Shown here: positions 1,917 to 47,340 of the stretch, piece by piece
Numbering within the stretch: position 1 is the first letter of the stretch
How the letters are laid out: each line of letters starts with the position of its first letter
Origin: Betaproteobacteria bacterium
GTDB lineage: Bacteria > Pseudomonadota > Gammaproteobacteria > Burkholderiales > Burkholderiaceae_C
Direction of reading: 5' to 3'
NCBI GenBank assembly: GCA_009925925.1
Contig: RFQA01000001.1
Location: 1 to 54,689, forward strand
DNA: 54,689 nt
Translations under genes and position numbers: made by a program
Notes under the pieces: model-generated
What the model was told of the DNA's origin: nothing
Database searches by the model: none
Seen by the model: the letters and a program-made list of their open reading frames with translations, nothing else

Positions 1917-1935
1917 CCTTCAACTACTGATCACC

Positions 1936-12875: not shown

Positions 12876-12876
12876 T

Positions 12877-12931
12877 GAAATCATGCCCTGGCTCCCGTCG
12901 AATGTGCGCGTGCAGCTCCTGAATTTATAGC
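12877..12931 (-). repeat. Dispersed motif, copy E (amgK-rsmE intergenic)
   Basis: Reverse complement: gctat aaattca ggagc tgcac gcgc acattcgacggga gcc agggcatgatttc. Confidence 0.75.
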
Positions 12932-12951
12932 AAGCTCCGGCTTCCCTTTTT

Positions 12952-19961: not shown

Positions 19962-20543
19962 TTAACGTGCCAATTTGTACACAGAAGTGCCGGCCCGAAG
20001 GTTGGGCAGGAAGCGGACCGTCTGACCATCCTGCAAACCAAAGCTGTCCAACACGCGCAAACCATTGCGCTGCGCCAGAACAACCAGGTCCGCATGGGTG
20101 CCGACGCGGATGTTGGGCGTGTCGTACCACTGGTAGGGCAATCGCTTGGTTACGGGCATGCGCCCTTGCAAAATGCTCAGGCGGTTGGGCCAATGGGCAA
20201 AGTTGGGGAAGGCCACAATGCCCACCCGTCCGACACGGGCCGTCTCAATCAACATGGTTTCGGCATTGCGCAGGTGCTGCAGGGTGTCGATCTGCAGCAC
20301 CACATCGAAGCTGGCGTCCTCAAACACGGTAAGCCCCTGGTCGAGGTTAAGCTGCAGCACATTCACGCCGCGTTTGACACAAGCCAGCACATTGGCATCG
20401 TCCAGCTCCACGCCGTAGCCGCTGCAGCCCCGCTCGCGCTGCAGGTAGTCCAGCATGGCGCCATCGCCACAACCGAGGTCGAGCACCCGGGAGCCCTGGG
20501 GCACCAAGCTGGCAATCGCGTGCAAAGTGCTTACATCCGTCAT
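19962..20543 (-). CDS. metW: Methionine biosynthesis protein MetW
   Basis: [24 protein letters not shown]; coupled to metX. Confidence 0.95.
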
Positions 20544-21688
20544 GCCTTGGACTCCAAACCATTGAAAATGCTATCAAAATAAGAGCGCATCACGCTCATA
20601 TAACGGGCGTCATCGAGCAAAAAGGCGTCGTGACCGTGGGGTGCATCGATTTCAGCGTAACTGACCTCGCGCTTGTTATCCAACAAGGCCTTCACCACCT
20701 CGCGGCTGCGTTGGGGGCTGAAGCGCCAATCCGTCGTGAAGCTCACCAGCAAAAACTTGGCGCGCGTGCGGGCCAGGGCTTGGCTCAGGTCGCCGCCTGA
20801 GGCTTTGGCAGGGTCAAAGTAGTCCAGAGCGCGGGTAATCAGGAGATACGTGTTGGCATCAAAGTACTCGGCAAACTTGTCGCCCTGGTAGCGCAGATAG
20901 CTCTCGATCTGGAACTCCACTTCCTGCGTGCTGTACTTGTAGCCGTTGGCGCTGGCCAGCACTTTGTCTTTGAGCTCGCGGCCGAACTTGGCGTTCATCA
21001 CGTCATCGCTCAGGTAGGTGATGTGGCCGATCATGCGGGCAATGCGAAGGCCCCGCTTGGGGATGACGCCATGCTCGTAAAAGTGCCCGCCATGGAAGTC
21101 GGGGTCGGTCACGATGGCGCGGCGCGCCACTTCATTGAACGCAATGTTTTCCGCATTCAGGTTGGGCGCACTGGCCACCACCACCGCGTGGCGCATGCGC
21201 TCAGGATATTGCAGTGTCCAGCTCAGGGCCTGCATGCCGCCCAAGCTGCCGCCCAAGACCGCAGCCAGCGTCTGGATGCCCAGCGCGTCGAGCAGGCGGG
21301 CTTGGGCGTTCACCCAATCTTCGACAGTAACCACCGGAAAGTCCGCGCCATAGACCTTGCCCGTGTCGGGGTGGGTGTGCATGGGGCCGGTGGATCCGAA
21401 ACAAGAGCCCAGGTTGTTGATGCCGATGACAAAGAATTTGTCCGTATCCACCGACTTGCCCGGGCCGATCATGTTGTCCCACCAGCCTTCGGACTTGTCC
21501 TGCCCCTCGTAAACGCCCGCTACATGGTGCGAGGCATTCAGGGCGTGGCACACCAGCACCGCGTTGGATTTGTCGGCATTGAGCGTGCCGTAGGTCTCGT
21601 AACTCAGGGAATAGCCGTGGATGGACGCCCCGCTTTGCAACTGCAAAGGGGCGTCAAAGCGCATGGTTTGGGGCGTGGCAATCAGCAT
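20540..21688 (-). CDS. metX: Homoserine O-acyltransferase MetX
   Basis: [33 protein letters not shown]. Confidence 0.96.
20570..20624 (+). repeat. Dispersed motif, copy I (inside metX 3' end, antisense)
   Basis: gctat caaaata agagc gcatc acgc tcatataacgggc gtc atcgagcaaaaag. Confidence 0.6.
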
Positions 21689-21726
21689 AAAAACAAAACC
21701 CGGCAACACTAAACGCGGGCCGGGTT
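21689..21726 (-). terminator. Terminator-like hairpin in the metX leader
   Basis: Minus strand aacccggc-loop-gccgggtt followed by ttgttttt, immediately before the metX ATG. Confidence 0.65.
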
Positions 21727-21745
21727 GAAATGCCAGAAGGCGGGT

Positions 21746-21797
21746 CCGTGTTTAGCTGAATTTATTAAGCGCCCGCAAGCTGGAGCAAATTGGCGCT
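21746..21797 (-). ncRNA. SAM-II class riboswitch
   Basis: Minus strand AGCGCCAAUUUG...UUGCGGGCGCUUAAUAAAUUCAGCUAAACACGG: P1 agcgcc/ggcgcu, UUU..UUGC loop and AUAAA..GCUAAA tail typical of SAM-II. Lies upstream of metX, with a TATACT -10 at 21808-21813. Confidence 0.85.
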
Positions 21798-21868
21798 GTG
21801 AGTGGCGAGTATAGCAAGGGACGCCTTTTTCGGGGTCTAACTCATAACCACGCACCAGCTTGGAATGC

Positions 21869-21885
21869 TTGGCGTGTTTTTTGCT
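21869..21885 (+). promoter_or_regulatory. Sigma-54 (-24/-12) promoter of amt
   Basis: TTGGCGTGTTTTTTGCT has GG-N10-GC spacing; NtrC-like GCACC boxes nearby (21851-21867, 21882-21898, 21921-21937). Confidence 0.7.
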
Positions 21886-21958
21886 TTATTTTGGTGCGCA
21901 AATTCATTTTTAAATGGTTTTGCACCAATCCAAAGCATTTATCGACCAAAGGACTCGT

Positions 21959-22986
21959 ATGGAAGCACTAAAACAGGGCGCGGATGCCTTGTTCATTTTG
22001 TTGGGCGCAATCATGGTGCTGGCCATGCACGCCGGTTTTGCCTTTCTGGAACTCGGCACCGTGCGTCGCAAGAACCAGGTGAACGCGCTGGTCAAGATCC
22101 TGGTGGACTTCTCGGTGTCTACCGTGGTGTATTTCGTGGTCGGGTACGCCGTGGCCTACGGCACCACCTTCTTTGTCGGTGCCGTGTCTGGAACCAGCAC
22201 TTAGGTGTGCAGGCCTGGATCAAGGCGCTGACCGGCGACGAGTTTCACGACTTTGCCGGCAGCGTGGTGGTCCACGCCGTGGGCGGCTGGATTGCCTTGG
22301 GCGCCGTGCTCTTGCTGGGTGCGCGCAGCAACCGCTACCGCAAAGACGGCGCGATGTCGGCTCATCCGCCAAGCAGCATTCCCTTCCTTGCCTTGGGCGC
22401 GTGGATTTTGATCGTGGGCTGGTTCGGCTTTAACGTGATGAGCGCACAGCTGCTCGACAAAATGTCCGGCCTGGTGGCGGTGAACTCGTTGATGGCCATG
22501 GTGGGCGGCACGCTGGTGGCCCTGCTCATGGGCAAAAACGACCCTGGCTTTGTGCACAACGGCCCGCTAGCCGGTCTGGTAGCCGTGTGCGCCGGTTCCG
22601 ACCTGATGCACCCGCTGGGCGCACTGGTGGTGGGCGGTGTGGCCGGCGCCATTTTTGTGGTGATGTTCACCCTGACCCAGAACAAATGGAAGATTGACGA
22701 CGTGCTGGGCGTCTGGCCCTTGCACGGCCTGTGCGGTACCTGGGGGGGTATTGCAGCAGGCATTTTCGGAAGCACTGCATTCGGCGGCTTGGGTGGCGTC
22801 AACTTCATGGCCCAGCTCATCGGCACTGCCATGGGCGTGGCATGGGCAGCCGCGGCGGGCTTTGTGGTCTACGGACTGCTCAAAGCGACCGTGGGCCTGC
22901 GCCTGAGCCAGGAAGAGGAATACGACGGCGCAGACCTCTCCATCCACAAAATCAGCGCCACGCCAGAGCGGGAAGCCAACTGGTAA
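21959..22986 (+). pseudogene. amt: Ammonium transporter with an internal frameshifting deletion near 22184 (pseudogene or assembly artefact)
   Basis: N-part MHAGFAFLELGTVRRKNQVNAL...FFVGA is in one frame and VWNQH...HDFAGSVVVH, GWFGFN, DDVLGVWPLHG is in another. The conserved F..A...ISG..AER...YP segment is missing. Confidence 0.85.
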
Positions 22987-23006
22987 TCGGGCTGTTAAAG
23001 CAGGTT

Positions 23007-23062
23007 GCTATGCTTTTCATAGCTACCTGCACTAATTTCATGGGCGCTAGCGCCCATTTTTG
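23007..23062 (+). repeat. Dispersed motif, copy B (after amt, overlapping the DoxX stop)
   Basis: gctat gcttttc atagc tacct gcac taatttcatgggc gct agcgcccatttttg. Confidence 0.78.
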
Positions 23063-23532
23063 TTGATAAACCGGTCTGCCGCCCACGCGCCGGGGCCATA
23101 CAAAGCCAGAGTCAGCAACAACACACCCCAAGTGATGTGCTGTTGCAACGCTGCGGGCGCAATCTCGCTCAGGGACAGCACCGCCATCACGTTGACCACA
23201 CTCAGGCCCAGGGCCGCGAACCGGCCGCCCAAGCCCAAGACTAACAAGACTGGCAATACGAGCTCACCCGCAGTGCCCATCCAGGCTGCCAGCTCCGGAG
23301 GCAGCAGGGGTACGTGGTATTCGTCCATGAACAAGGACAGTGTGATGTCCCAGTCGCGCAGCTTGGTCAAGCCGGACGAGAAAAATGCGTTCGCGACATA
23401 CAGCCGCGCCAGCAAGGCGGCAGGTGCTTGCAAAGCGTCCAGCAGGCGATGGCCACTCGCCACAAGCTTCGACACGCGCGTGAGCCAATGGCCGCTACCG
23501 GCGCGGGATGAGGTTGCCAATAGAGATTTCAT
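23047..23532 (-). CDS. DoxX family membrane protein (BufD-like)
   Basis: LLARLYVA..FFSSGLTK, LFMDEYHVPLLPP, ELVLPVLLVLGL, GPGAWAAD. Confidence 0.85.
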   Translation of the reverse strand: MKSLLATSSRAGSGHWLTRVSKLVASGHRLLDALQAPAALLARLYVANAFFSSGLTKLRDWDITLSLFMDEYHVPLLPPELAAWMGTAGELVLPVLLVLGLGGRFAALGLSVVNVMAVLSLSEIAPAALQQHITWGVLLLTLALYGPGAWAADRFINKNGR

Positions 23533-23563
23533 ACAGACTCTTTTCAAACACAGGACATAGCGA

Positions 23564-24337
23564 TCACTCGCCGGAATGCACCGCCAACAACAAGCCGCTT
23601 TGAACAGCCACGGTCAGCCACTGCGAGACATCCAGATGAGGCACTGCATCCAAGGCCTCACCCAGGCTGCGGCCCGCTAGCAGGGCGTGAAGGAACACAG
23701 CTTCCCCCTCCAAGGCCACACGCACACAGGGCTTGAACCCCTGCCGCCAGACCACTGCATCCTCGCCCGCTTTGGCTTGCAACAAACGACCGACCTCTTC
23801 AAAGCTGGGGCCGTTCTCACGATGCGCCGCATGGATGGTGGCAACCGGCCAATCACTGCACTGCACTGCGGCACCGGGCGATAGGCGTAAGCACAACATG
23901 CCGGAGTCTTGGGTACTCAATAGCGTCAAGGTGTTCAGCTCCGAGTTCGCGTTTTCCAGCGTGGCCATGCTGTGCAGGGCCCATTCCAAACGCGCCACAT
24001 CGGGGAGAAAAGGCGTGTCCTGCAGCTGGCTGCTACTCGCCACAAAGTCGGCCAAGCTTTCGCCCCATTGCGCCACGTCGCCGCGCACTGGGGGGTGGGC
24101 ATGCCAGTAGGCGCGGGCCAAGTCGCCCATGCTTTCCACGCCTAATAGTTGGGTCAACACCGGATAAGCGGCCTGCAGCGCGCGTTCTGCCAGCGCATGC
24201 GCATTCGATTGATAGGCTTTCAGGCCTCTGGCGCCCGGATCTATTGCGCGAGCAGCTATGTTTTTCATAGCATCTTCCGCAGGCCAATCACAAAGCGCTG
24301 CTACCAACGCTTGTTGTTGCTGTGCCAGGGTGCTCAT
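23564..24337 (-). CDS. DUF2063 / BufC-HvfC-like partner protein
   Basis: [39 protein letters not shown]; ATGA-coupled to the DUF692 gene. Confidence 0.85.
24217..24271 (-). repeat. Dispersed motif, copy G (inside the DUF2063 gene, sense)
   Basis: Reverse complement: gctat gaaaaac atagc tgctc gcgc aatagatccgggc gcc agaggcctgaaag; encodes [18 protein letters not shown]. Confidence 0.8.
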
Positions 24338-25263
24338 GCGTCGCACGCCTCGGCTTGCTGCAAGGCGGTTTGAGCCATCTGGCGCGCCAACTCGGCTTCA
24401 CCCAGCAGCACTTCCAAGGCGGGCACGTCGGTGTCCCACTCCATTAACGTAGGTACCGCGCCGAAGCGCCGGATGGCATGGCGGTAGACCGCCCACACCG
24501 CGTCGCAGACTCGGCTTCCGTGGTCGTCGATCACGATGTGGCCATGCGCGTCATTCACCTCGCAATGGCCGGCCACATGCAACTCGCCCACCGAGGCGGA
24601 GTCGATGGCATCCAGCCAGGCACAGCACGAGGCCACCGGATCACGGGTATCGCCCTGCAGTTGTGCGTTCAGGGCATTGACGTAGATGTTGTTCACATCG
24701 ACCAGCAACTCGCAGCCGGTACGCCGGGCCAAGGCATTGAGGAAATCCGGCTCAGTCCATTCCTGCTCGCCCGGCACCGGACGCCACCGCAGATAGGCCG
24801 ACAGGTTTTCCACCATGAAGCGACGCTGCAAGCGGTCTTGCACACACTGCACGTTGGCACAAAGCGTGTCCAGCGCTTCGTCGCTAAACGGTAACGGCAG
24901 GAGATCGGCAGCATGCACCATGGCGACCGAACCCCAAGGCGCGCGGGCAAAGCTGGCATGGTCGCTGACCCTCACCGGGTCGATACGGCGTACCAGTGCA
25001 TCCAATTGGTCCAAATGCCAAAGGTTCAGCCCCGCGGCAGAGCCTAAGGACAGGCCCACGCCGTGCAGGCTGACCGGGTACAGGGCGCGCCCCTGTTCCA
25101 ACACAGCCAGGCTGGCTCCACCGCGGGCAAAAAAATTCTCGGAGTGGACTTCCAGAAAGTCCAGCGAGGGCTGCTGTTGCAGCACCTGCGCGTAATGGGG
25201 GTGCCGCCACCCGATACCGGCCCGAATGTCGCCGGACAGCGCCGGAGCATGTGGTGTTTGCAT
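24334..25263 (-). CDS. DUF692 multinuclear non-heme iron oxidase (MNIO, BufB-like)
   Basis: [63 protein letters not shown]. Start placed at ATG 25263. Confidence 0.93.
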
Positions 25264-25310
25264 GAGCGGGTATGCGTGGGGGCGGACTTGGAAATGCAAT
25301 CGATGCAGAT

Positions 25311-25568
25311 TTACATCTTGGGCGCCATGAGGCTGCCCTTCATTTTTTCGCAAGTGCCTTTGGCCACATATTTCCATTCGCCTTTGTCCATGTCCACTTT
25401 GGACTGGCCGGCGCACGAATGAGCGCCGGAAGCGTTTGCGCAGTCGTTTTGACCGGCCTTGGCGATGCCGAAGCATTTCTCTTTTTCCTGGGCGGCAACG
25501 GGGGCAGACGCCAGGGTGAGGGACATCAGGGTGGCAGCGGTAGCGGCAAGCAGGGCACGTTGGTTCAT
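25311..25568 (-). CDS. DUF2282 bufferin-type precursor peptide (BufA1-like)
   Basis: Signal peptide, then [14 protein letters not shown]...HSCAGQ...W.YV..GTC (C-x10-C-x8-C-x20-C); AGGAG RBS. Confidence 0.9.
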
Positions 25569-25650
25569 GTCGAAACTCCTAGAGTAATTGCATCAATGAA
25601 AACAACCATTCAGCCTCCGGTGCGGTGCGCTCCAGCGCTGTGGTTGACGT

Positions 25651-25679
25651 TTAGTCCTGCTGCAAGGTGCTTTCTTACA
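25651..25679 (-). promoter_or_regulatory. Putative ECF sigma promoter for the DUF2282 operon
   Basis: Minus strand TGTAAG-N16-GGACTAA, resembling GTAA-type ECF promoters; lies between the operon and its divergent ECF gene. Confidence 0.5.
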
Positions 25680-25741
25680 CTCCGCGCAAAAAAATTTAAA
25701 ACTCGCCCAGTACACTGCGCATCACACTCCGCGAGCACCCC

Positions 25742-26311
25742 ATGACCCGCTACGAAAACCAGGTCGCAGAACATCGCGACTATCTCTACAAGTTCGCCCG
25801 ATTGCAACTGCGCAATGAAGCGTGGGCAGAGGATGCTGTCTCCGAAACCCTGCTGGCCGCGCTCGCCAAACCGCAAGCATTCGACAACCGGTCGCAGCTC
25901 AAAACTTGGCTGGTTGGCATCCTCAAACACAAGGTCGTGGACGCGTTGCGCCACCACGGCCGGGAAGTCACGGGATTGGGCAGTTCGGAGGATGAAGATA
26001 CAGATCCGTTGGAGCTGCTGAACTTCAAGGCGGATGGGCACTTTGTAGAAACACCTGCGGATTGGGGCAACCCGGAACAGCAAACCAGCAGCCGGCAGTT
26101 CTTTGAAATTCTGGAAGCCTGCACGGAAAAACTACCCGCCGTGCAAGGGCGGCTGTTTCTGATGCGCGAATGGCTGGAGTTGTCTAGCGAAGAAATTTGT
26201 AAGGAACTCGATCTGACACCGACGAATCTCTACGTCCAACTCCACCGTGCCCGCTTGAGGCTCAGGGAATGTCTTGAAATGAATTGGTTCCAGAAAGCGG
26301 GTGCCTTGTGA
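25742..26311 (+). CDS. ECF sigma-70 factor
   Basis: AEDAVSETLLAAL, TWLVGILKHK, EICKEL, LHRARLRLRECL. Confidence 0.93.
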   Translation: MTRYENQVAEHRDYLYKFARLQLRNEAWAEDAVSETLLAALAKPQAFDNRSQLKTWLVGILKHKVVDALRHHGREVTGLGSSEDEDTDPLELLNFKADGHFVETPADWGNPEQQTSSRQFFEILEACTEKLPAVQGRLFLMREWLELSSEEICKELDLTPTNLYVQLHRARLRLRECLEMNWFQKAGAL

Positions 26312-26520
26312 AGCTGTTGCGCCGTACATGCAAAGAAGCTACCGCCTTGATGGTGGCGAGGGAAGATCGCGTCCTGCCGGTGGCAGACCGCGTCGCTTTG
26401 TATTTCCATCTCGCAGCCTGCAAGGCCTGCCCCCGCTTTGAAAAGCAGATGCTGACTATGCGCAACAGCATGCGCCAGTGGCGCCATTACAGCGAAAAAG
26501 ATGCCGATTCTGCCGGCTAG
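26308..26520 (+). CDS. Zinc-finger (zf-HC2/ZAS) anti-sigma factor
   Basis: TCKEA...HLAACKAC (Hx3Cx2C); GTGA overlap with the sigma stop. Confidence 0.88.
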   Translation: MKLLRRTCKEATALMVAREDRVLPVADRVALYFHLAACKACPRFEKQMLTMRNSMRQWRHYSEKDADSAG

Positions 26521-26705
26521 CCTGAAAAAACAAGAAAAACTAGGATTCCTCAACAAAGTAACGCATAATGGTTTGGCATTGCCGAAATATCGGTGTGCAA
26601 GTTTGCGGTGATTAGTCAGTTTCGCGTCTGCTTTAAGTCTTCAATGGTTTGTTGATTGCGGTTAAAGACTCCATCGCGTTTTGAGTTATTTTGAGGAGTC
26701 CATCC

Positions 26706-27137
26706 ATGGGCAACAAACTTTACGTAGGCAACTTGCCTTATTCTTTCCGTGACGAAGACCTGCAACAAGCGTTTTCCCAGCACGGTTCCGTTTCCAGCGC
26801 CAAAGTCATGATGGAACGCGACACCGGTCGCTCCAAGGGCTTCGGCTTTGTGGAAATGGGCAGCGATGCTGAAGCACAAACTGCTATCAGCGCCATGAAC
26901 GGTCAACAGTTCGGCGGCCGCGGTTTGGTCGTGAACGAAGCACGTCCCATGGAACCACGTCCTCCCCGTTCCGGCGGCTTCGGCGGCGGCGCTGGTGGTG
27001 GCGGTGGCTACGGCGGCGGTGGCCGTTCCGGTGGTGGCGGCTTCGGCGGCGGCGGCCGTTCCGGTGGCGGCGGCTACGGTGGCGGCGGTGACCGTTCCGG
27101 TGGCGGCGGCTACGGCGGTGGCCGTTCCAGCTACTAA
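26706..27137 (+). CDS. RRM RNA-binding protein with Gly-rich tail
   Basis: RNP2 LYVGNL, RNP1 KGFGFVEM, repeated GGGG(Y/F)GGGGRS; GAGGAG RBS. Confidence 0.95.
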   Translation: MGNKLYVGNLPYSFRDEDLQQAFSQHGSVSSAKVMMERDTGRSKGFGFVEMGSDAEAQTAISAMNGQQFGGRGLVVNEARPMEPRPPRSGGFGGGAGGGGGYGGGGRSGGGGFGGGGRSGGGGYGGGGDRSGGGGYGGGRSSY

Positions 27138-27160
27138 GCCAGGAACTGCTTCTGCAGATC

Positions 27161-27190
27161 AAAAAAGGGACCTTCGGGTCCCTTTTGTTT
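27161..27190. terminator. Bidirectional intrinsic terminator
   Basis: aaaagggacc-ttcg-ggtccctttt. Confidence 0.88.
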
Positions 27191-27209
27191 TACATGTCTC
27201 ACACGTCGG

Positions 27210-27986
27210 TTACGCCTCATCGATCCGACGCTTGCGGGGGCGCCCCGCCAAAGCTTTGTCAAACAAGGCATTCGGCAAAGCACGCAATAGCCTGGCCACC
27301 CAGCCCATTTGCCAAGGAATCACACGGTAACGAACACCCTGCGTGATAGCGGCAAATGCCCGCTGCGCGAAAGCATCGGCGGTCATCAGAAAAGGCATGG
27401 AGTAACGGTTCTGGCGGGTCAACGGTGTGTCGATGTAACCGGGACAAATGGTGACAACTTTGACGCCGCTGGCACGCAGTTCGCCCCGCAGTGATTCGCA
27501 ATAGGCAATCACAGCCGCCTTGCTTGCACAGTAGGCTCCGTGCCCGGGCAAGCCACGGATGCCGGCCACGCTGCCTATTCCGACCAGCCGGCCCGAACCG
27601 CGCTGTTCCATGGCAGCAATAAAGGGATGGAAAGTCGCCGCCAGGCCGATGTTATTGGTGGCAAAGGTCCGTTGCATGACATCAATATCACCACGAATGC
27701 TCGTATCCATACCGATGCTGATGCCGGCATTGGCCACTACTACATCCGGTACGCCCTGTGCACTCAAACAGGCATGACCCGCAGCCACAATGCTGTCAGT
27801 TTCTGCCACGTCTGCGCTGTAAACCTTGAAGCGCTGTGGGTTGAGCTGTTCAGTGGCCGCCCAGCGCTCAATCTCGGCGGTTCGCCTCGCCACCAATGCC
27901 AGCGAATAGCCTGCGTCATAAAAGCGTTTGGCCAAGGCCTGGCCAATTCCGCTGGAAGCGCCGGTAATGAAAATAAGCGGTGGCAT
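27210..27986 (-). CDS. SDR family oxidoreductase
   Basis: TGASSGIG, NAG, YCASK, PGYIDT. Confidence 0.93.
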   Translation of the reverse strand: MPPLIFITGASSGIGQALAKRFYDAGYSLALVARRTAEIERWAATEQLNPQRFKVYSADVAETDSIVAAGHACLSAQGVPDVVVANAGISIGMDTSIRGDIDVMQRTFATNNIGLAATFHPFIAAMEQRGSGRLVGIGSVAGIRGLPGHGAYCASKAAVIAYCESLRGELRASGVKVVTICPGYIDTPLTRQNRYSMPFLMTADAFAQRAFAAITQGVRYRVIPWQMGWVARLLRALPNALFDKALAGRPRKRRIDEA

Positions 27987-28006
27987 AAATTTCCTTGAAA
28001 ACTGAC

Positions 28007-28624
28007 CTAGCGTGTAGCCGGGATCAAGGTGCCGCGAACGCGACCTTGAAGCCGAATCACTTGCTGCACATTGTCATAGTCCATGGCATCTGCGGTGAAG
28101 ACATCGTTGCCGCGCCGCAATTCAACCGGCTTGTTCGACTTCAATTGCTCCGTGTCTATGAAGGCATGCAAGAACTCACCCCGATATTCGGTTCGTACCT
28201 GTTCCGGATTGTTCTTGCTTGCCAGTACCGCTTCGCGCACCACGACCGCATTTCCAATCAACTGCACTTCAGAGCCGTCCTCATTGGTCAGGCCGCGGTT
28301 GGCTGTTGCGGTGGTGAGGCGCCCTTTGGCATCGAAGGACCGGATTCGAATGGCGTCTATCTCCAGCCATTGGGTGTCGGGATAATGGCGGGCCACATCG
28401 CCCATCACCTCTGATCTGAGCTTGCCCGCAGGATCGAAGGACTTCACGCTGAAGCCATGCATGAAGTAGTCCGGTTCGTGCCCCCGTACCCGTTCAGGTG
28501 CATGGGGTTCAACCACAGGTGTACTGCGGACCAACCAATAAGTTCCCAGCGCCAACACCCCCATCACCAAAACGGGGAGGTACAGCATCAGCCGTTCCCA
28601 TGCGCTGTAAAGAAAGTTTTTCAC
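28007..28624 (-). CDS. lptC: LPS export periplasmic protein LptC
   Basis: Single TM, HEPDYFM, RHYPD, jelly-roll strands, L.GRVRG; GTGA overlap with kdsC. Confidence 0.88.
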   Translation of the reverse strand: MKNFLYSAWERLMLYLPVLVMGVLALGTYWLVRSTPVVEPHAPERVRGHEPDYFMHGFSVKSFDPAGKLRSEVMGDVARHYPDTQWLEIDAIRIRSFDAKGRLTTATANRGLTNEDGSEVQLIGNAVVVREAVLASKNNPEQVRTEYRGEFLHAFIDTEQLKSNKPVELRRGNDVFTADAMDYDNVQQVIRLQGRVRGTLIPATR

Positions 28625-29166
28625 GAAAGGTAGGGCTCTAAAAGATCCACATAGCGCCCACTGGCCACCATCAGCAGATCGCAAACCTCACGCACGGCTC
28701 CATGGCCGCCCGCCGCGCTGGTGACATAGTGAGCCCGCCCACTAACTTCCAAATGCGCATTCGCCGGTGCAGCAGCAAAAGCACACCGCAACATCATCGG
28801 TAAATCCGGCCAATCGTCCCCCATGGCGGCAGCCTGCTCCCAGCCCAAGCCCAATGCGTTCAGGATTTCTTGCGCTGCCGGATGCTTGTCTTCAGTGCCG
28901 AAACGGGCCTGTTCGATGCCCAGGGCTTGAAGGCGCAACCGCAGGGCCGGCGAATCCCTGCCGGTCACCACCGCGGGCGTAACTCCAGCCTTTTGCAGCA
29001 ACTTGAGGCCATGGCCGTCCAAGGTGTTGAAACGCTTGCTGGTCTCACCCTCCGCTGTAAAGTGCAATCCACCATCTGTGAGTACACCATCCACATCCAG
29101 AAAAAGAACGCGGATGTTCTGCGCTTTCAGCAGCAGATCCGGCGGTAAATTCAGCAGTGGTTTCAT
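28621..29166 (-). CDS. kdsC: KDO 8-phosphate phosphatase
   Basis: DVDGVLTDG, DGHG, GDDWPD, GGHGAVREVCD. Confidence 0.94.
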   Translation of the reverse strand: MKPLLNLPPDLLLKAQNIRVLFLDVDGVLTDGGLHFTAEGETSKRFNTLDGHGLKLLQKAGVTPAVVTGRDSPALRLRLQALGIEQARFGTEDKHPAAQEILNALGLGWEQAAAMGDDWPDLPMMLRCAFAAAPANAHLEVSGRAHYVTSAAGGHGAVREVCDLLMVASGRYVDLLEPYLS

Positions 29167-30167
29167 CAAATCACCTTGGCCCGCATCAAATCATTGCTAT
29201 TGATAGCACCGCATAAGCGCCCGGCATCGTCCACCACCAGCACACTGGTAATGCGGCGGGCTTCCATCAGGTCAGCCGCGTCCACCGCCAAAGCGTGGGC
29301 CGGGATGGTGCAAGGATTGGCATGCATCACCTCCACCGCAGTCTTGGCACGTAGATCCGTCCCTTGTTCCACCAGCCTTCGCAAGTCTCCGTCGGTAAAG
29401 ATGCCCATCAAAGTCTCGTCTTCGGTCACTACTGCGGTAGCGCCCAAGCCCTTCGTGCTCATTTCGCGCATCAGTTCGCTGAATGTCGCAGTGGGCCATA
29501 CGCGCGGAATCGCGTCCCCAGTCCGCATGACGTCTGATACATGGGTCAGCAGTTTTCGACCCAAGGCTCCACCCGGGTGCGAGCGGGCAAAGTCCTCTGC
29601 GCGGAAGCCCCGGGCATCCAGCAATGCCACGGCCAAGGCGTCGCCCATGGCCAGTTGTGCTGTGGTGCTCGCTGTAGGCGCGAGATTCAAGGGGCAGGCC
29701 TCTTTACTCACGGCGGTGTCGATCCAGCAATCGGCATGCTGGGCCATGGTGCTGCGTGCATTGCCCGTCATGGCGACCAACGGTACTCCCAAGCGCTTGA
29801 GCACTGGAAGAATCGCCGCCACTTCCTGGGACTCTCCGCTGTTGGAAATCATGAGCACCAGATCGGCGGCGGTCACCATGCCCAAATCACCATGACTCGC
29901 CTCAGCAGGATGCACAAACATGGCGGGGGTACCGGTGGATGCGAGAGTAGCGGCAATCTTGCGGCCCACATGACCGCTTTTGCCCATACCCATGACCACC
30001 ACGCGCCCCGAGATCGTCAACACCCGTTCCACCGTCCTCACAAAGCCTTCACCAAGACGACTTTTCAGCCCCTGAACGGCTGCAGCTTCGATGTCGAAGG
30101 TTTCGTTGGCGAGGGCCATGGCGCGCTGCGCATCAAAGCTGGATGCAATGAGGGAAGGTACTGTCAT
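29166..30167 (-). CDS. kdsD: Arabinose 5-phosphate isomerase (KpsF/GutQ)
   Basis: GMGKSGH, HPAEASHGDLG, EACPLNLAPTASTT, HPGGALG, CBS pair. Confidence 0.95.
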   Translation of the reverse strand: MTVPSLIASSFDAQRAMALANETFDIEAAAVQGLKSRLGEGFVRTVERVLTISGRVVVMGMGKSGHVGRKIAATLASTGTPAMFVHPAEASHGDLGMVTAADLVLMISNSGESQEVAAILPVLKRLGVPLVAMTGNARSTMAQHADCWIDTAVSKEACPLNLAPTASTTAQLAMGDALAVALLDARGFRAEDFARSHPGGALGRKLLTHVSDVMRTGDAIPRVWPTATFSELMREMSTKGLGATAVVTEDETLMGIFTDGDLRRLVEQGTDLRAKTAVEVMHANPCTIPAHALAVDAADLMEARRITSVLVVDDAGRLCGAINSNDLMRAKVI

Positions 30168-30210
30168 CCGGGCATTTTATAGAGCGCATGTCTCTTGCTA
30201 GTATCCGTTT

Positions 30211-32199
30211 ATGACCGGTTTAGAAATCACCCTGCTTTACCTCTTCGCCGCCGTGCTGGGAGTGGTGATCTGCCGCACATTGAAATTGCCGCCCATGCTG
30301 GGCTATCTGGCTGTCGGCGTGGTGATTGGTCCCAATGCTCTCGCGTTGTCCCAAAACTCGGAGGCCGTACGGCACCTGGGGGAATTCGGCGTCGTGTTTC
30401 TGATGTTTGTGATCGGGCTGGAGTTCAATTTGCCGCGTCTACGGGCGATGCGCCAGCACGTGTTCGGCTTGGGGCTTTTGCAAGTGGCCTTGACCATGCT
30501 GCTGGCTACTGGGCTCATGCTCGGCCTGTCTATCTGGTTGTCAGGCGCTTGGCATCTGGGTTGGCAAGCGGCGCTTGCCCTGTCCAGTGCGCTGGCCATG
30601 AGCAGCACCGCGATTGTGGTGAAGCTGATGGTGGAGCGGCTGGAAATGGAGTCTGAACACGGAAAACGCGTGATGGGCGTTTTGCTGTTTCAGGATTTGG
30701 CCGTGGTGCCACTGCTGGTGTTGATTCCCGCCCTCAGTGCATCTGGGGAGCGCTTGATGGAAGCGTTGGCGCTCGCGGCCTTCAAAGCCACAGTGCTAGT
30801 CACCGTTTTGCTGGTAGGTGGGCAGCATGTCATGCGCCGCTGGCTGACGGTCGTAGTGCGCCGCAAGAGCGATGAGCTGTTTGTACTCAATCTGCTGCTG
30901 ATCACGCTGGGCCTCTCCTGGCTCACGGAGTTGGCTGGCTTGAGCCTGGCCTTGGGCGCCTTCATTGCGGGCATGCTGATTTCGGAGACGGAATACAAGC
31001 ACCAAGTGGAAACCGACATCCGGCCTTTCCACGACGTACTGCTGGGGCTTTTCTTTATCAGTATCGGGATGCTGCTGGATTGGCGTCTGGTCCTGGAGCG
31101 CTGGCCACTGGTTTTGCTACTGCTGGTGGTACCTACCCTCTTCAAGGCTACGTTGGTAGCGCTGATCGCAAGAGGCCTCGGCGCAACAGCCGGAGTGTCT
31201 TTGCGTACCGGGCTCTATCTTGCACAAGCCGGCGAGTTCGGATTTGTGCTGCTGACCCTGGCCCAGAAAAATGCCTTGGTCCCACCCGAACTGCTGAACC
31301 CCATTCTTGCGGGCATGGTGCTATCGATGCTGGCGACCCCCTTCATCATCATGAATGCCAACCTTATCGTCATGAAACTGGTCAGCAGCGAGTGGCTGCA
31401 ACAGTCCCTGCAAATGACGACGATTGCGCGCAAGTCCATCAACGCCAACCAGCATGTCATCATTTGCGGCTACGGGCGCTGCGGCCAGAATCTGGCACGC
31501 ATGCTGGAGGGCGAAGGGATACCTTATATGGCGCTGGACCTTGACCCGGATCGGGTGCGTCAGGCTGCAGCAGCGGGGGATTCCGTGGTGTTCGGAGACG
31601 CAGCCCGCTTGCAAGCCCTGATGGCAGCGGGTCTTGCGCGCGCCAGCGCCGTGGTCATCACCTATCTGGATACCAATGGCGCTCTCAAGGTACTTGCCAA
31701 CACGCGTTCACACGCACCGCAGGTGCCTGTCATTGTTCGCACCCAGGACGACCAGAATCTGGAAAAGCTACAGGAAGCTGGCGCCACTGAAGTGGTTCCC
31801 GAGGCCATCGAGGGCTCACTCATGCTCGCGAGCCATGCGCTGGCACTGGTGGGTGTGCCCATGCGGCGGGTGATCCGCATCGTTCAGGATCAGCGTGATG
31901 CACGGTACAACCTCTTGCGCGGTTTCTTCCACGGTGCGGATGACAACTCTGTCGATGAACTGCAGAACGAACGACTGGCCACCGTGAGTCTGCCCATGGG
32001 GACGAAATCCGCCGGGAAATTGATAAGCGATTTCGGTCTGGAACGCTTGAGTGTACGTTTGGTCAGTTTGCGACGTGCGGATGGCAAAACTGTCTCACCC
32101 GATGCGCAGACCCGCCTTATGGCGGGTGATACGCTGGTCTTGAGCGGCAAGGCCGTCGAGTTGGCAAGTGCTGAGCAAAAACTGCTCAAAGGTGCTTAA
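30211..32199 (+). CDS. CPA2 monovalent cation:proton antiporter (KefC/YbaL-like) with TrkA-N and TrkA-C domains
   Basis: FLMFVIGLE, SSTAIV, LFQD, GAFIAG, QAGEF, GYGRCG. Confidence 0.92.
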   Translation: MTGLEITLLYLFAAVLGVVICRTLKLPPMLGYLAVGVVIGPNALALSQNSEAVRHLGEFGVVFLMFVIGLEFNLPRLRAMRQHVFGLGLLQVALTMLLATGLMLGLSIWLSGAWHLGWQAALALSSALAMSSTAIVVKLMVERLEMESEHGKRVMGVLLFQDLAVVPLLVLIPALSASGERLMEALALAAFKATVLVTVLLVGGQHVMRRWLTVVVRRKSDELFVLNLLLITLGLSWLTELAGLSLALGAFIAGMLISETEYKHQVETDIRPFHDVLLGLFFISIGMLLDWRLVLERWPLVLLLLVVPTLFKATLVALIARGLGATAGVSLRTGLYLAQAGEFGFVLLTLAQKNALVPPELLNPILAGMVLSMLATPFIIMNANLIVMKLVSSEWLQQSLQMTTIARKSINANQHVIICGYGRCGQNLARMLEGEGIPYMALDLDPDRVRQAAAAGDSVVFGDAARLQALMAAGLARASAVVITYLDTNGALKVLANTRSHAPQVPVIVRTQDDQNLEKLQEAGATEVVPEAIEGSLMLASHALALVGVPMRRVIRIVQDQRDARYNLLRGFFHGADDNSVDELQNERLATVSLPMGTKSAGKLISDFGLERLSVRLVSLRRADGKTVSPDAQTRLMAGDTLVLSGKAVELASAEQKLLKGA

Positions 32200-32262
32200 T
32201 CTTATCGGCGCTTCGGCGCACAATAGCGCGGCGCCACTCTGGCGCCTTTTCTTTGAATTCCT

Positions 32263-32817
32263 ATGCAACACCTCAGCATCAATCAGTACCTCCGTGACCA
32301 TATCCGCACTGTCCCCGACTGGCCAACGCCAGGCGTGCAGTTCCGTGACATCACGCCGCTTCTGCAGGATGCCAAGGTTTTCCGGGTGCTGATTGACGCC
32401 TTTGTGCACCGCTACATGGACCCCGCCATGCGACCGGACGTAGTAGCCGGGCTTGACGCGCGCGGTTTCATCCTTGGGGCCGTGGTGGCCTACGAATTGA
32501 ATATCGGTTTCGTACCCATCCGCAAGAAAGGCAAGTTGCCTTTCACCACGGTCGAAGAAACCTATGAGCTGGAATACGGCAGCGCCACTGTGGAGCTCCA
32601 TACCGACGCAGTGAAAAAGGGCGACCGAGTGCTGCTGATTGACGACCTGATCGCGACCGGCGGGACCATGATGGCAGGCAAGAAGTTGCTGGAGCGCTTG
32701 GGGGCGCACGTCATGGAAGGTGCCGCCATTGTGGACTTGCCGGAATTAGGCGGATCCGACAAGCTGCGGGAAACCGGTCTGCCTTTGTTCACCTTGGTGG
32801 ATTTCGCAGGTCACTGA
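32263..32817 (+). CDS. apt: Adenine phosphoribosyltransferase
   Basis: [33 protein letters not shown]. Confidence 0.96.
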
Positions 32818-32838
32818 GCTGTGAAATCGGCGTCGCCC

Positions 32839-33522
32839 TCAGTTTAACTCGCCATATTGGGTGCCACTGAGGGGAGATTGGCGTTCGTCAATCTCTGTAT
32901 CGGTGAATCGGGATGGCTGCGGATTGCGGCGGGATGACTTCATGATCTCGCCGGGCGCCGACAACTTGGCCGGCACCGGCACCGACGCCAGTGCTTGCTT
33001 GAACGCGGCAACTTCCGAGGGTTGCAAAGGTTCGAAGCGACGGGGTGTCGGTAGCGTACGGACATAATCGTCCTGCGTATGCGACAGGCTGGAGCTCACA
33101 TGCTCATTCACCCGCCAGTAGACAGCCGTTACCAACAGGTCATGGCGGGTTTTGGCGATTTTGGCGATTTGTGTTTCTATTCCAGCCAGTCGAACGGGAT
33201 CGCTGACATTGCGGGCCGCCATATCCATCATGATCAGGTACTGGCGTCCGCGAGAATCCAACGACAGCACCTTGAATTTGTAGCTGCTCGACAGCATGCC
33301 GGCGCCTGTCATGGATTCACGCACCACGGCGTACAACAACTCTCGCCGCTCAAGCCGCTCACTGCGGCGGGCAGACGTTATTCCCGATGACGCGACTGAA
33401 GCCGATTTGCTCCGGCCATGGCGCGCAGAGGTATGGTCACCATCTGTATGACCAAGGCCCGAGTGACGGGTGCCGAGTGTGTTGTTGGAACTCGTCCGGG
33501 TGAACCAGCTGAATAGTGACAT
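32839..33522 (-). CDS. Hypothetical protein
   Basis: Clean ORF from MSLFSWF with an ordered core (RRELLYAVVRESM...YKFKVLSLD...AVYWR) and low-complexity flanks; no family recognised. Confidence 0.7.
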   Translation of the reverse strand: MSLFSWFTRTSSNNTLGTRHSGLGHTDGDHTSARHGRSKSASVASSGITSARRSERLERRELLYAVVRESMTGAGMLSSSYKFKVLSLDSRGRQYLIMMDMAARNVSDPVRLAGIETQIAKIAKTRHDLLVTAVYWRVNEHVSSSLSHTQDDYVRTLPTPRRFEPLQPSEVAAFKQALASVPVPAKLSAPGEIMKSSRRNPQPSRFTDTEIDERQSPLSGTQYGELN

Positions 33523-33562
33523 AGGTGAGTGACTCCTGTGCGACGCCAGAGTGTAGTGCAGG

Positions 33563-34972
33563 CTATTTGCCAATACAGAATTTTGAAAAGATGACACCCA
33601 GCAGGTCATCCGCGCCGAATTCACCGGTGATGCTGTTCAGGGCGTTCTGGCCCAACCGGAGTTCTTCCGCCAACAGGTCCAGCGCAGCACTACCGGAGGC
33701 CAGCAATTCCGACGCCATGTCCAAATGCTGACCCACCAGATGCAAGGCCTGTACATGGCGTTGGCGGGCCATGAAAGCGCCACTCTGTGCGGGTTGCCAC
33801 CCTGCCGCTGTGAGCAGGTTTTGCCTCAATGCATCGAGGCCAACGCCGGTCTTGGCAGAGAGAACGATACCCTCCAAACTAGTTTCCGGAGTCACTGCGT
33901 CAGACTTGTTCCAGACATGGATCACCGGTATGGATGCAGGCAGTTTTTCGGCGATAGCGCCCGCTATATCTGCGTCTGCAGCTATGTATTCGATAGCAGA
34001 ACTACGTGTCAAATCATGCAGGAACAGGACGGCGTCTGCGGTTTCAATGGCCTGCCAAGCGCGTTCGATACCGATTTTCTCCACGGCGTCATCACTGGCA
34101 CGCAAACCGGCCGTGTCGATGATGTGAAGAGGCACACCTTCGATTTGGATAGTCTCCTGCACCTTGTCGCGCGTAGTACCTGCGACGGGGGTCACGATGG
34201 CCAATTCAGCACCGGCCAAGGCATTCAGGAGAGACGACTTGCCGGCATTCGGTTGCCCGGCAATAACCACTTTCAAACCTTCACGGAGCAAAGCCCCTTG
34301 GGTCGCTTTGGCCAGTACTTGTTGGAGAGCTTGCTGCAAGCGTTGCAACTGCCCCACCGCGTCCGCTTTCTGCAGAAAGTCAATTTCCTCTTCGGGGAAA
34401 TCGAGCGTCGCCTCTACCAGCATGCGCAAATGAATGAGCGCATCCCGCAAGATGCCGATTTCCTTGGAGAAGGCGCCGGACAAAGACTGACTGGCACTGC
34501 GTGCTGCCGCTTCCGTGCTGGCGTCGATGAGATCGGCGATGGCCTCTGCCTGGGCCAGATCGAGCTTGTTGTTCAGGAAGGCACGTTGGGTGAACTCGCC
34601 CGCCTCGGCGATGCGCAAACCAGGCAACAGAACGCTGGAGACGCCCTCTGTTTGCACACTGTTTGCCAGTGCAATACAGCGGGCGACCAGCAACTGCAAC
34701 ACCACAGGACCGCCATGAGCCTGGAGTTCCAGTACGTCTTCACCTGTGAAGGAATGGGGGCCCGGAAAAAACAAGGCCAGCCCATAGTCAATAGGCTGGC
34801 CTTTTTCGTCAGGGAAAGGGAGATAGGTCGCTTCGCGTGGCCGCAGGGCTTTGCCCAACAAGGCCTGCGTGAAAGCTCCGAGGCTTTTTCCACTCAACCT
34901 TACTATGCCGACAGCGCCGCGGCCTGAAGCTGTGGCGATGGCGGCAATAGGGTCAGAGTGACGTGAGAGCAC
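33563..34972 (-). CDS. mnmE: tRNA modification GTPase MnmE
   Basis: [45 protein letters not shown]. Confidence 0.97.
33943..33997 (-). repeat. Dispersed motif, copy H (inside mnmE, sense)
   Basis: Reverse complement: gctat cgaatac atagc tgcag acgc agatatagcgggc gct atcgccgaaaaac; encodes [18 protein letters not shown]. Confidence 0.75.
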
Positions 34973-34987
34973 GCTGCGACCGGCCCT

Positions 34988-36685
34988 TTACTTGAACTTG
35001 GGCAGGTTGAACTGCGGTGGCACACCCATGCGGGTGTTGATGATCCACTGCTGCGCAATCGACAGAATGTTGTTGGTAATCCAGTACAGCACCAAACCGG
35101 ACGGGAAGAAGAAGAACATGACGCTGAAAGCCAGCGGCATGATCCACATCATCTTGGCTTGCAAGGGGTCCGGTGGCGCAGGGTTGAGCGCCGTCTGCAG
35201 CAAGGTCGTCAAAGTCATAACAACCGGCAGGATGAAATAAGGATCAGGCGACGACAGGTCGTGAATCCACATGACCCATGGCGCATTGCGCATTTCCACC
35301 GTGGACAACAGCACCCAGTACAAGGCAATGAACACAGGAATCTGGATCATGATGGGGAAACAGCCACCCATGGGGTTGACCTTTTCCTCGCGGTAGATCT
35401 TCATCATTTCCTGCTGCATCTGCTGCGGATTGTCTTTGAGGCGCTCACGCATCTCCATGATGCGCGGGTTCACCGCCTTCATCTTGGCCATGCTGGCGTA
35501 AGCCTTGGCATTCAGCCAATAAAACGCAATTTTCAACAATAGCACCAAAGCTACGATGGACCATCCCCAGTTCTGGATGAAGCCGTGCAGCTTGTCGAGC
35601 AACCAATACAAGGGCTTGGCCAGAATCGTCAACCAGCCGTAGTCCTTCACCAGCTCCATGCCAGGCGCCAATGCCTCCAGCTTTTTTTCTTCTTGGGGAC
35701 CAACAAACAATTTGGCCTCCACTGATTTGGTTTGCCCCGGGGCCACGGTTTCCAAGGGCGTGATCATGGTGGCCCGGTAGCAGCAATCAGCGACGGTCGC
35801 CCCCACATCTTTGGCATCCAGAGAGAAGGACCGCTTCACGTCCGCAGGCAAAAGCCAGGCACTGGCGAAGTAATGCTGCACCATGGCGATATAGCCATTG
35901 GCGCTCTCCTTTTCAAAATCAGCACTCCCTTTTTTGATAGCGCTGAACTCCACCTTCTGGTACTTTTTGTGGTCGGTATAAACCGCAGGGCCTGTGAAGG
36001 TGGAATAGAACGAGGACTCGCCTGCAGGCTTGTTGCCGTCACGTACCAGCTGCAAATACAACTGGGGGTTCAGTGCTGTTGCACCGGTATTGACGACTTC
36101 GTGCTTGACCGCAATGTCATATGCACCACGGCGCAAGGTGTAAGTCTTCACCAGCTTGATGCCACCGGTGTCTTGTGAGGTGAAAACAATCTTGAGTTCG
36201 TCCTGCCCATCTTTGAGCGACTTGTCACCACTTACTGCCATGACCGACTTATGGGTCGGAAAGCTGTCAGGCGCAGCGCCACCGATCAGTCCAGTCTGGG
36301 CTTGGTAGTAACGGTCCTTGGTGTCGTCCAGCAATACGAAATTGCGAGTTTTGTCGTTGGAATCAAGGTACTGCAGGAATTCAGAACGAACCAGCGAACC
36401 ACCCAGAGTGTCAAACGTCAGTTTGAGCACATCGGTGCTGACCTCAAAGCGCTCAGACGCTAGGGCTGGAGCCGATGTGGAGACCGGTGCCTGCCCTGCC
36501 GCCACTGGTGCAACAGGTACGCCTGCCGGAGCACTCACCGCGGGAGCCGGAGCTGAGGCCGCTTTTTGTGCAGGGTTAGGGAAGAAAGTGGCTTGCTTTC
36601 CATTGTGGATCTGCCACTGGTCCCACAAGAGAACCATGGAGAACCCAAAGATCACCCACAAAATGGTGCGGCGAATATCGTTCAT
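34988..36685 (-). CDS. yidC: Membrane protein insertase YidC
   Basis: QHYF, DYGW, NWGWSI, NPMGGCFP, DPYFILP, GLVLYW. Confidence 0.97.
   Translation of the reverse strand: MNDIRRTILWVIFGFSMVLLWDQWQIHNGKQATFFPNPAQKAASAPAPAVSAPAGVPVAPVAAGQAPVSTSAPALASERFEVSTDVLKLTFDTLGGSLVRSEFLQYLDSNDKTRNFVLLDDTKDRYYQAQTGLIGGAAPDSFPTHKSVMAVSGDKSLKDGQDELKIVFTSQDTGGIKLVKTYTLRRGAYDIAVKHEVVNTGATALNPQLYLQLVRDGNKPAGESSFYSTFTGPAVYTDHKKYQKVEFSAIKKGSADFEKESANGYIAMVQHYFASAWLLPADVKRSFSLDAKDVGATVADCCYRATMITPLETVAPGQTKSVEAKLFVGPQEEKKLEALAPGMELVKDYGWLTILAKPLYWLLDKLHGFIQNWGWSIVALVLLLKIAFYWLNAKAYASMAKMKAVNPRIMEMRERLKDNPQQMQQEMMKIYREEKVNPMGGCFPIMIQIPVFIALYWVLLSTVEMRNAPWVMWIHDLSSPDPYFILPVVMTLTTLLQTALNPAPPDPLQAKMMWIMPLAFSVMFFFFPSGLVLYWITNNILSIAQQWIINTRMGVPPQFNLPKFK
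35888..35941 (-). repeat. Dispersed motif, degenerate copy J (inside yidC, sense)
   Basis: Reverse complement: gctat caaaaaa gggag tgctg attt tgaaaaggagagc gcc aatggctatatc; same register, middle blocks diverged. Confidence 0.5.
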
Positions 36686-40471: not shown

Positions 40472-40472
40472 T

Positions 40473-43169
<2,697 letters not shown>

Positions 43170-43170
<1 letters not shown>

Positions 43171-43853: not shown

Positions 43854-43859
43854 CACCTT

Positions 43860-47223: not shown

Positions 47224-47246
47224 ACGGTTCCACCGGTATTTTTAGG

Positions 47247-47302: not shown

Positions 47303-47340
47303 AAGCTGAGGGCTGACTTCTCCCCTGTGCCGAACTGTCC

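Follow-up and report, generated by a model that had tools for sequence, protein, structure and literature searches.

A dispersed motif of about 65 bp in Comamonadaceae, carried within metX and mnmE and possibly acting as an uptake-type signal

Positions 1 to 54,689 of contig RFQA01000001.1 (GenBank assembly GCA_009925925.1, Betaproteobacteria bacterium), hereafter the window, hold nine scored copies of a motif of about 65 bp that is dispersed through this genome and patchily distributed in the Comamonadaceae. A first-pass annotation made from the letters of the window had placed three copies inside the housekeeping genes metX, mnmE, and yidC and had likened them to DNA uptake sequences. We present here an analysis of these sites, of the motif in this genome and its relatives, and of the processes that may maintain it. 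The three genes and their sites are as follows.

20540-21709, minus strand: metX, host gene (NF047916, above cut-off)
20569-20632, minus strand: copy in metX, in the sense orientation, in the C-terminal helix right after the catalytic-His motif (31.2 bits)
33563-34972, minus strand: mnmE, host gene (NF003661, above cut-off)
33935-33998, plus strand: copy in a variable G-domain loop of mnmE, in the antisense orientation (41.3 bits)
34988-36685, minus strand: yidC (NF002352, above cut-off)
35876-35944, plus strand: site in yidC with partial likeness to the motif, no significant copy (-14.7 bits)

Copies were scored with a 69-column position-weight matrix trained on this genome (G000, about 95% complete). 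Matches of at least 12 bits were counted as copies, and the reversed genome served as the null. Genes were predicted with a simple gene caller (3798 genes, 89% coding). Other G numbers denote the relatives compared, G005 and G011 being motif-poor. In a survey of 200 genomes of the family, genomes with at least 20 exact GCTAT-N7-ATAGC sites by our own count were called rich.

The peptides to which the first-pass annotation assigned the motif lie where it placed them, on the minus strand (metX 20567-20632, mnmE 33944-33997, and yidC 35888-35941), and all three gene names were confirmed by NCBIfam. As copies of the motif, the metX and mnmE sites hold; the yidC site does not. Its score is reached at about two positions per window of this size in the reversed-genome null, and its orthologues in motif-rich close relatives score lower (-15 bits in G000, -29 in G010, and -45 in G001 and G004), so it is not a significant copy. 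It could be an incipient copy, indistinguishable from chance; sites at -15 to -10 bits number 88 in the genome and 96 in the null, with no excess. The A/T-ending codons reported at the three sites are present but not diagnostic. Third-position G/C at the site and in the rest of the gene is 0.59 versus 0.80 in metX, 0.39 versus 0.64 in mnmE, and 0.44 versus 0.71 in yidC, and because 4 to 7% of same-size windows in each gene are equally low, this property alone cannot identify a copy.

The motif was further said to lie in these genes without insertion or deletion, and the alignments bear this out for metX and mnmE. Of 105 metX orthologues sampled across the genus, family, and order, 104 have no gap in the 23 site columns and the remaining one is truncated; the site also aligns without gaps to PDB chain 2pl5_A. 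In mnmE, a single loop length is found in all 17 same-genus rows covering the site; most rows from other families are about 8 residues shorter (two are not), PDB chain 9hip_A is 4 residues shorter, and insertion of a whole motif would add 21 to 22 residues, beyond the length differences seen. Changes toward the consensus, expected to be synonymous and conservative, include synonymous ones, and non-synonymous changes contribute too: relative to three motif-free metX orthologues, 8 to 10 synonymous codon changes add 23 to 43 bits and 5 to 7 non-synonymous changes add 34 to 40 bits. Outgroups do not score equally well, as orthologues from motif-poor genomes and other families are at background for both genes. 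The mnmE site scores 10 to 46 bits in 8/8 rich genomes and -12 to -64 bits in 9/9 poor genomes of the same genus, the value of -12 coming from a genome with 9 sites. At the metX site, six of the eight rich genomes score 21 to 32 bits and two score -14 and -19; all nine poor ones are at -28 bits or less. Across 63 loci, kin not being independent, the metX score correlates with the genomic abundance of the motif (rho 0.64), and in a metX tree built without the site, low scores fall in several separate clades, the deep nodes being weakly supported. The seeds of the metX search contained the site peptide, which favours motif-bearing matches.

Genome-wide, 548 copies reach 12 bits, and the reversed genome has no match of at least 8 bits. 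The exact GCTAT-N7-ATAGC pattern occurs at 87 sites, other spacer lengths at 0 to 3. The motif comprises, in order, a T pair, an A/T tract, TAGC, a variable middle, TGC, and a GCT-N11-AGC dyad with an A/T center; a second TAGC lies 39 bp from this dyad, and the A/T tracts show power peaks at periods near 11 and 22 bp. By eye, the two ends of the matrix show no complementarity. Density is about 1 copy per 7 kb. Among copies of at least 20 bits, 226 of 530 (43%) are fully genic, in both orientations, and 178 of 222 deep genic copies fall in two of the six reading frames (97 and 81, one sense and one antisense). Non-genic copies are enriched in convergent gaps (83 copies over 216 gaps) and depleted in divergent ones (25 over 429), and their orientation relative to neighboring genes shows no preference (80 versus 106). 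One sense accounts for 42 of 64 copies in one 400-kb stretch around the origin; replichore polarity was inconsistent in G010, where the arms hold 22+/36- and 20+/22- (hand count over the first 100 in a list of 136 matches, with the origin placed from dnaA). Atypical contigs are poorer in copies (6 versus 16 to 18 per 100 kb). Unshared genes, some of which are assembly gaps, hold 4 copies in 111 kb and 1 in 52 kb (3.6 and 1.9 per 100 kb), and shared genes 25 in 242 kb and 33 in 308 kb (10.3 and 10.7 per 100 kb). Two genic copies each are found in comEC (confirmed by profile) and in mutL, dnaE2, tex, and purL (named by reading translations). Overlapping copies in opposite orientation, with the dyad at each end, occur at two places in this genome (C74:681 and C432:957).

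Rich genomes make up 56 of the 200 in the family survey, in a patchy distribution, and none of 147 genomes from other families exceeds 10 exact sites. Within the genus, 8 of 18 other genomes have 48 to 167 exact sites and 10 have 0 to 9. Named neighbors of metX (Rhodoferax, Curvibacter, Polaromonas, and others) assign the organism to the Comamonadaceae. Lineages have dialects: the middle part is distinct in G000, G188, and G226 (11 to 14 copies each in the other genomes), with spacing constant. A search for another dialect in 391 kb of motif-poor G005 gave no match of at least 5 bits and no outstanding dyad.

The first-pass annotation favored substitution or conversion over insertion, which holds at metX and mnmE but not family-wide, as 3 of 23 testable genic sites of G000 are block-like. 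Against motif-free homologues, 12 of these 23 sites are within 1 residue in length, 6 are longer by 3 to 10 residues, 3 are longer by 16 to 23, and 2 are shorter. Over all scorable rows (40 out of 279 genic site rows, including some that repeat a site in orthologues, with homologues from 1.08 Mb of motif-free DNA), 20 are within one residue, 11 are longer by 2 to 5, 2 by 6 to 14, and 4 by at least 15, and 3 are shorter. Origin in the family is mixed: about half of the testable genic sites overlay native codons, and some copies entered as blocks. One tex loop carries the motif in G000, G004, and G135, and in another genus holds a core match in the opposite orientation; this loop apparently gained the motif as a block, more than once. 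One intergenic copy of G004 faces a 63-bp gap in G000. In a mutL-like gene (named by reading), 69 bases differ from G005 almost only synonymously, yet score 49 bits versus -2. The metX and mutL-like sites cannot be insertions.

Once present, copies persist. Positions are retained in 37/37 and 39/41 cases against G010 and in 31/33 and 33/36 against G004 (400 kb each), and 55 of 61 genic sites are retained in 1.2 Mb of G004, 54 without length change. Informative positions diverge by 0.045, about fivefold less than the 0.21 at four-fold sites, and free positions are nearly neutral; the score change is -1.7 bits, versus -23 for an equal number of random changes (n=20). The conserved informative positions support the suggestion that selection or drive acts on the DNA sequence itself. 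Pairing across both dyads equals expectation where hairpin covariation was sought, and covariation is confined to neighboring bases, such as an A-tract on either strand. Nearest-neighbor identity of copies has a median of 77% and a maximum of 86%, and the longest shared runs are close to those of Markov-simulated sets. With no long-range covariation and no clonal copies, a hairpin and template copying were both rejected. From the stable positions, the purifying selection, the neighbor-only covariation, and the dialects on a fixed frame, we infer that a protein reads the motif in double-stranded DNA. One copy common to G004 and G010 was deleted together with its flanks in G000.

Base composition varies with distance from the copies. 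In G000, G+C at four-fold sites (GC4) stands at 0.80 to 0.81 in the first kilobase around a copy, at 0.76 at 2 to 3 kb, and at 0.67 farther than 6 kb away. The gradient was also tested by circular shift in four 400-kb stretches from G010 and G004 (two of them orthologous), each of which gave p=0.002. At orthologous codons, GC4 goes from 0.82 near to 0.65 far in G000 and from 0.85 to 0.84 in G005, which with G011 supplied the controls in poor genomes. The gradient does not differ between the two sides of the motif and strengthens with copy quality (0.76, 0.81, and 0.81), and the far loss of G+C includes two-fold sites, first and second positions, and intergenic DNA. Recent polarized changes imply an equilibrium G+C of 0.81 and 0.80 near versus 0.72 and 0.76 far. 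In gaps longer than 12 kb (n=35), the center is lower in 25, higher in 8, and tied in 2. Among named metX neighborhoods, near exceeds far in 16 of 21, by a mean of 0.03. A core region of 18 to 24 kb (ndk, rlmN, ispG, hisS, der, hfq, and hflXKC, with gene names partly from reading translations) is free of copies in all six rich genomes examined. From ndk to hflX, GC4 is mostly 0.5 to 0.7 in rich genomes, V-shaped between the flanking copies in G004, and 0.7 to 0.9 in G011 and G005. Reference genes vary too (0.58 to 0.89 in rich genomes), and the contrast of the ndk region with them is about 0.07 to 0.19 in rich genomes and 0.01 to 0.07 in the two poor ones.

Other causes of these valleys were considered. 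Far genes have more rare A-ending codons and fewer C-ending ones, a pattern of drift toward A+T unlike that of high expression, which was rejected with a reference set of only 4 genes. Operon position was rejected since copy-free convergent gaps have no halo (0.737 versus 0.746). Foreign origin fits some gaps but not the ndk-ispG-hisS-der region, which is syntenic between rich and poor genomes. Farther from copies, species also differ more: four-fold divergence between G000 and G004 is 0.36 to 0.42 near and 0.53 to 0.69 far in three stretches (p=0.003 to 0.005). The effect stays significant when G+C and protein divergence enter as covariates (t=4.8, genes not being independent), and for G-C differences alone the values are 0.21 near and 0.32 far.

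We propose, at a probability of about 0.5, that the motif is an uptake-type signal, such that, when cells exchange genes, marked DNA would be favored for uptake or recombination. A symmetric, motif-tied effect over kilobases, with far regions below the level of poor genomes, points to a bias in homologous exchange toward motif-bearing fragments. A protein would recognize the motif by sequence and shape, and biased exchange would favor better-matching alleles, which is molecular drive. Such drive would rewrite codons where the protein tolerates the changes, while some copies would be seeded as blocks through illegitimate recombination. DNA far from copies would recombine less, drift toward A+T, and diverge earlier. 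By analogy, the distance effects on G+C and divergence appear to strengthen the likeness to DNA uptake sequences drawn by the first-pass annotation. More tentatively, at odds somewhat short of even, the Comamonadaceae may have evolved their own means of recognizing self-DNA, the third after those of Neisseriaceae and Pasteurellaceae and independent of them, with a 65-bp signal far exceeding theirs in length. Such a system would rewrite codons of the catalytic domains of housekeeping enzymes and zone the chromosome into recombining, G+C-rich DNA near copies and recombination-cold, A+T-drifting valleys between them.

For comparison, we used the accessible sections of Findlay and Redfield 2009 (PMC2817400), Treangen et al. 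2008 (PMC2397512), and Mora et al. (PMC7811141) on the DNA uptake sequence (DUS) of Neisseriaceae and the uptake signal sequence (USS) of Pasteurellaceae. As described there, these signals resemble the present motif in having hundreds of family-restricted copies in both orientations, lineage dialects, and a strong reading-frame bias; 35 to 65% lie in open reading frames (ORFs), compared with 43% here, and they are scarce in newly gained genes and arise without ordinary transposition. The Comamonadaceae motif differs in its density (one per about 7 kb versus about 1.1 to 1.2 kb), in containing a dyad, and in being patchy within a genus. By length and sequence it is no DUS or USS, and the likeness proposed here concerns function alone. 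New DUS often face unrelated sequence or gaps in the part of Treangen et al. consulted (PMC2397512), so block-like copies do not exclude an uptake-type signal, though point substitution would not be the sole route. Uptake preference is known in two families only, according to the available portion of PMC7811141.

Several results weigh against an uptake-type signal. At about 65 bp, the motif is twice the length of USS (about 30 bp) and six times that of DUS (10 to 12 bp), as these are given in the sources consulted in part. Competence genes are found in rich and poor genomes alike: ComEC in 71/73, ComM in 66/66, and HHH_3 proteins, mostly Tex, in 63/66, with PilT and ComP_DUS pilins in 5/5 genomes (the ComP_DUS-family pilin in 3/3 rich and 2/2 poor). 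As all genomes examined carry them, they neither support nor exclude uptake, and our literature search found no report of sequence-preferring natural transformation in Comamonadaceae. Copies are spaced only slightly more evenly than at random (coefficient of variation of gaps, 0.78 to 0.84), and 11 genes have at least two copies where a Poisson distribution predicts 10.2. Drive does not account for the long copy-free region in all six rich genomes, and 8 of the 35 long gaps have a higher GC4 at the center than at the edges. Divergence between G000 and motif-poor G005 also climbs with distance, from 0.47 to 0.53, and the gradient between G000 and G010 is gone after the 15% most divergent genes are dropped. 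Among GC-matched genes, the very-low-divergence share is not significantly higher near copies (32/192 versus 17/145, p=0.22), though the medians differ (p=0.001). Of six other rich genomes, G188 and G226 show a clear G+C gradient, G147 a weak one, and G108, G057, and G138 none, the last three having few sites and unreliable gene calls. The GC4 spread of 3-kb windows is equal in 22 rich and 20 copy-free metX neighborhoods (p=1.0). The poor controls are only two genomes, and one contig supplies much of the far class in G005. Yahara et al. found no general link between G+C and recombination across ten species, as far as the part of that paper available to us goes (PMC4866539).

A search of genes and 6-kb windows dense in copies gave no partner candidate. 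A single Y1_Tnp gene is present in 5/5 genomes, rich and poor, and only where the motif is abundant does a weak copy lie at its 3' end. None of ComEC, ComM, PilT, ComP_DUS, HHH_3, and Y1_Tnp separates rich from poor genomes.

As the main rival, the copies might instead be where a protein of chromosome organization, topology, or repair binds or loads, wrapping or bending about 65 bp and locally changing the rate or spectrum of mutation over several kilobases; ordinary selection would keep each site, and the halo would not stem from gene exchange. We regard this as improbable, though it deserves serious attention. The length, the phased A/T tracts, the A-tract on either strand, and the lack of pairing covariation fit a wrapped double-stranded site. 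Also in favor are the interval of about 7 kb between copies, their enrichment in convergent gaps, and their scarcity in divergent ones; a summed-density model with a scale of about 12 kb fits GC4 best, and G+C is lost far from copies in every site class and in intergenic DNA. Yet far regions of rich genomes fall below their motif-poor relatives while near regions only equal them, which suits a process limited to motif-bearing DNA, and repeated loss (10 of 18 same-genus genomes) speaks against an essential structural role. We know of no chromosome-organizing or repair protein that shifts base composition over kilobases. A small mobile or ectopically copied repeat without host function, of the kind of miniature inverted-repeat transposable elements (MITEs), Rickettsia palindromic elements (RPEs), or repetitive extragenic palindromic (REP) sequences, would make the genic copies tolerated passengers. 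The three genic sites of G000 that are 16 to 23 residues longer, the tex loop, the intergenic 63-bp gap, and bimodal scores with no excess of weak matches below -5 bits agree with it, but the copies are positionally stable with none young and clonal, purifying selection acts on the informative positions, insertion cannot explain the metX and mutL-like sites, Y1_Tnp occurs in rich and poor genomes alike, and a passenger would give no halo; we consider it quite unlikely.

Drive and a halo would also be expected if another transfer route were biased, through packaging by phages or gene transfer agents, mobilization like that from an origin of transfer (oriT), or Chi-like protection of incoming DNA, and 8 of 9 phage-like IMG/VR contigs with an exact pattern match carry scored copies. 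Packaging, oriT, and Chi-type routes are usually one-sided or polar, whereas this halo extends equally to either side of the copies and motif orientation in G010 is not aligned with the replichores, which leaves such a route very unlikely. Some of the copies in these viral contigs lie in terminase-like or methylase-like genes (named from translations); blastn of one copy gave no match in phages and one chance match in plasmids, with low power for so variable a motif. Least credible, to the point of being a long shot, is that the motif serves as the operator for a transcription factor of the LysR or Lrp type, or that it specifies a structured RNA. The motif has an invariant T and A 12 apart (T-N11-A), a geometry typical of LysR-type sites, but 43% of copies are genic in both orientations, divergent promoter regions are depleted, no orientation is preferred, and Watson-Crick pairing across both dyads equals expectation. 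Rfam gave no match in the window at the gathering score and only sub-threshold matches over two copies.

Known repeats offer partial parallels. RPEs and similar in-frame insertion repeats sit inside protein-coding genes, and a minority of motif copies likewise add about one element length in surface loops; unlike RPEs, about half of the testable sites add nothing, no hairpin covariation or clonal copies are found, and the DNA is under purifying selection. The motif lacks the near-identical young copies of MITEs and RPEs as well as the covarying hairpin arms and the tied, repeat-flanked RAYT gene of REP sequences. HIP1 of cyanobacteria, Chi, and KOPS are genome-wide 8-mers that accumulate in coding DNA by substitution, Chi and KOPS being strand-polar; the replichore-following orientation of Chi and KOPS is not seen here.

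Parts of the motif have been recorded before. In the sections available, Tong, Schliekelman and Mrazek 2017 (PMC5217627) report spaced pentamer pairs in Polaromonas naphthalenivorans CJ2, Rhodoferax ferrireducens T118, and Acidovorax ebreus TPSY, with R. ferrireducens having the most pairs (140) of all genomes screened and an average genic share of 34%. Their pair CTAGC-N24-TATTA fits the matrix positions exactly. Those sections list separate pairs with function unassigned and contain no assembly into one element, no species comparison, and no link to uptake or codon rewriting. We found no description of the assembled element in the literature, our search having little reach into subscription papers. 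BRE, as given in the accessible part of Hot et al. 2011 (PMC3110155), is likewise a dispersed repeat of Comamonadaceae that at times lies in coding sequence; it is about 90 bp long with 69% G+C in Bordetella, where it also occurs, and forms tandem arrays in 1 to 29 copies. By these published properties, and not by sequence, it is a different repeat. At the 3' end of metX in G010 and G014, a different, G+C-rich repeat lengthens the MetX C terminus by about 28 residues in frame; its 12-mers are over-represented in G000 too, and it is possibly a candidate BRE.

If true, repeated loss of the motif within one genus would be a natural experiment on how recombination sets bacterial G+C, and a third uptake case in a widespread freshwater, soil, and plant-associated family would be an independent test of the molecular-drive model. 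Presence or absence in close relatives, together with distance-dependent synonymous G+C, would make the disputed link between recombination and G+C testable per gene. A structural site would instead point to a novel protein that shapes mutation over kilobases. Either way, the motif would account for unusual codons and residue changes across hundreds of proteins of the Comamonadaceae and for local A+T valleys in core genes that are liable to be misread as foreign DNA.

The seven other copies in the window are the following.

1860-1923, minus strand: intergenic copy (63.6 bits)
7580-7643, minus strand: weak genic copy in rsmA (19.0 bits)
12869-12932, plus strand: copy at the end of an amgK-like ORF, before rsmE (59.3 bits)
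23006-23069, minus strand: copy between convergent genes, overlapping one gene end (62.0 bits)
24209-24272, plus strand: copy overlapping the 5' part of an HvfC-like ORF (53.2 bits)
40472-40535, minus strand: weak copy in the dnaN-gyrB interval that overlaps a G+C hairpin (21.7 bits)
47240-47303, plus strand: intergenic copy between convergent genes (63.5 bits)

The rsmA site scores 25 bits in G010, -42 in G004, and -44 in motif-poor G005, whose loop is shorter by 7 residues. Positions 23047-26311 hold a bufferin-type maturation cluster for a ribosomally synthesized and post-translationally modified peptide, with HvfC-like and HvfX-like genes, an extracytoplasmic function (ECF) sigma factor, and an MNIO maturase that scores 309.9, just below the BufB cut-off of 310. 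After gyrB, four co-oriented genes at 43167-46832 include one with a weak, below-cut-off match to ZorA (E 5e-8) and another resembling OmpA/MotB; together they may form a Zorya-like defense cluster. At the contig end, positions 1-53 form a perfect 24-nt inverted repeat that is possibly an assembly artefact.

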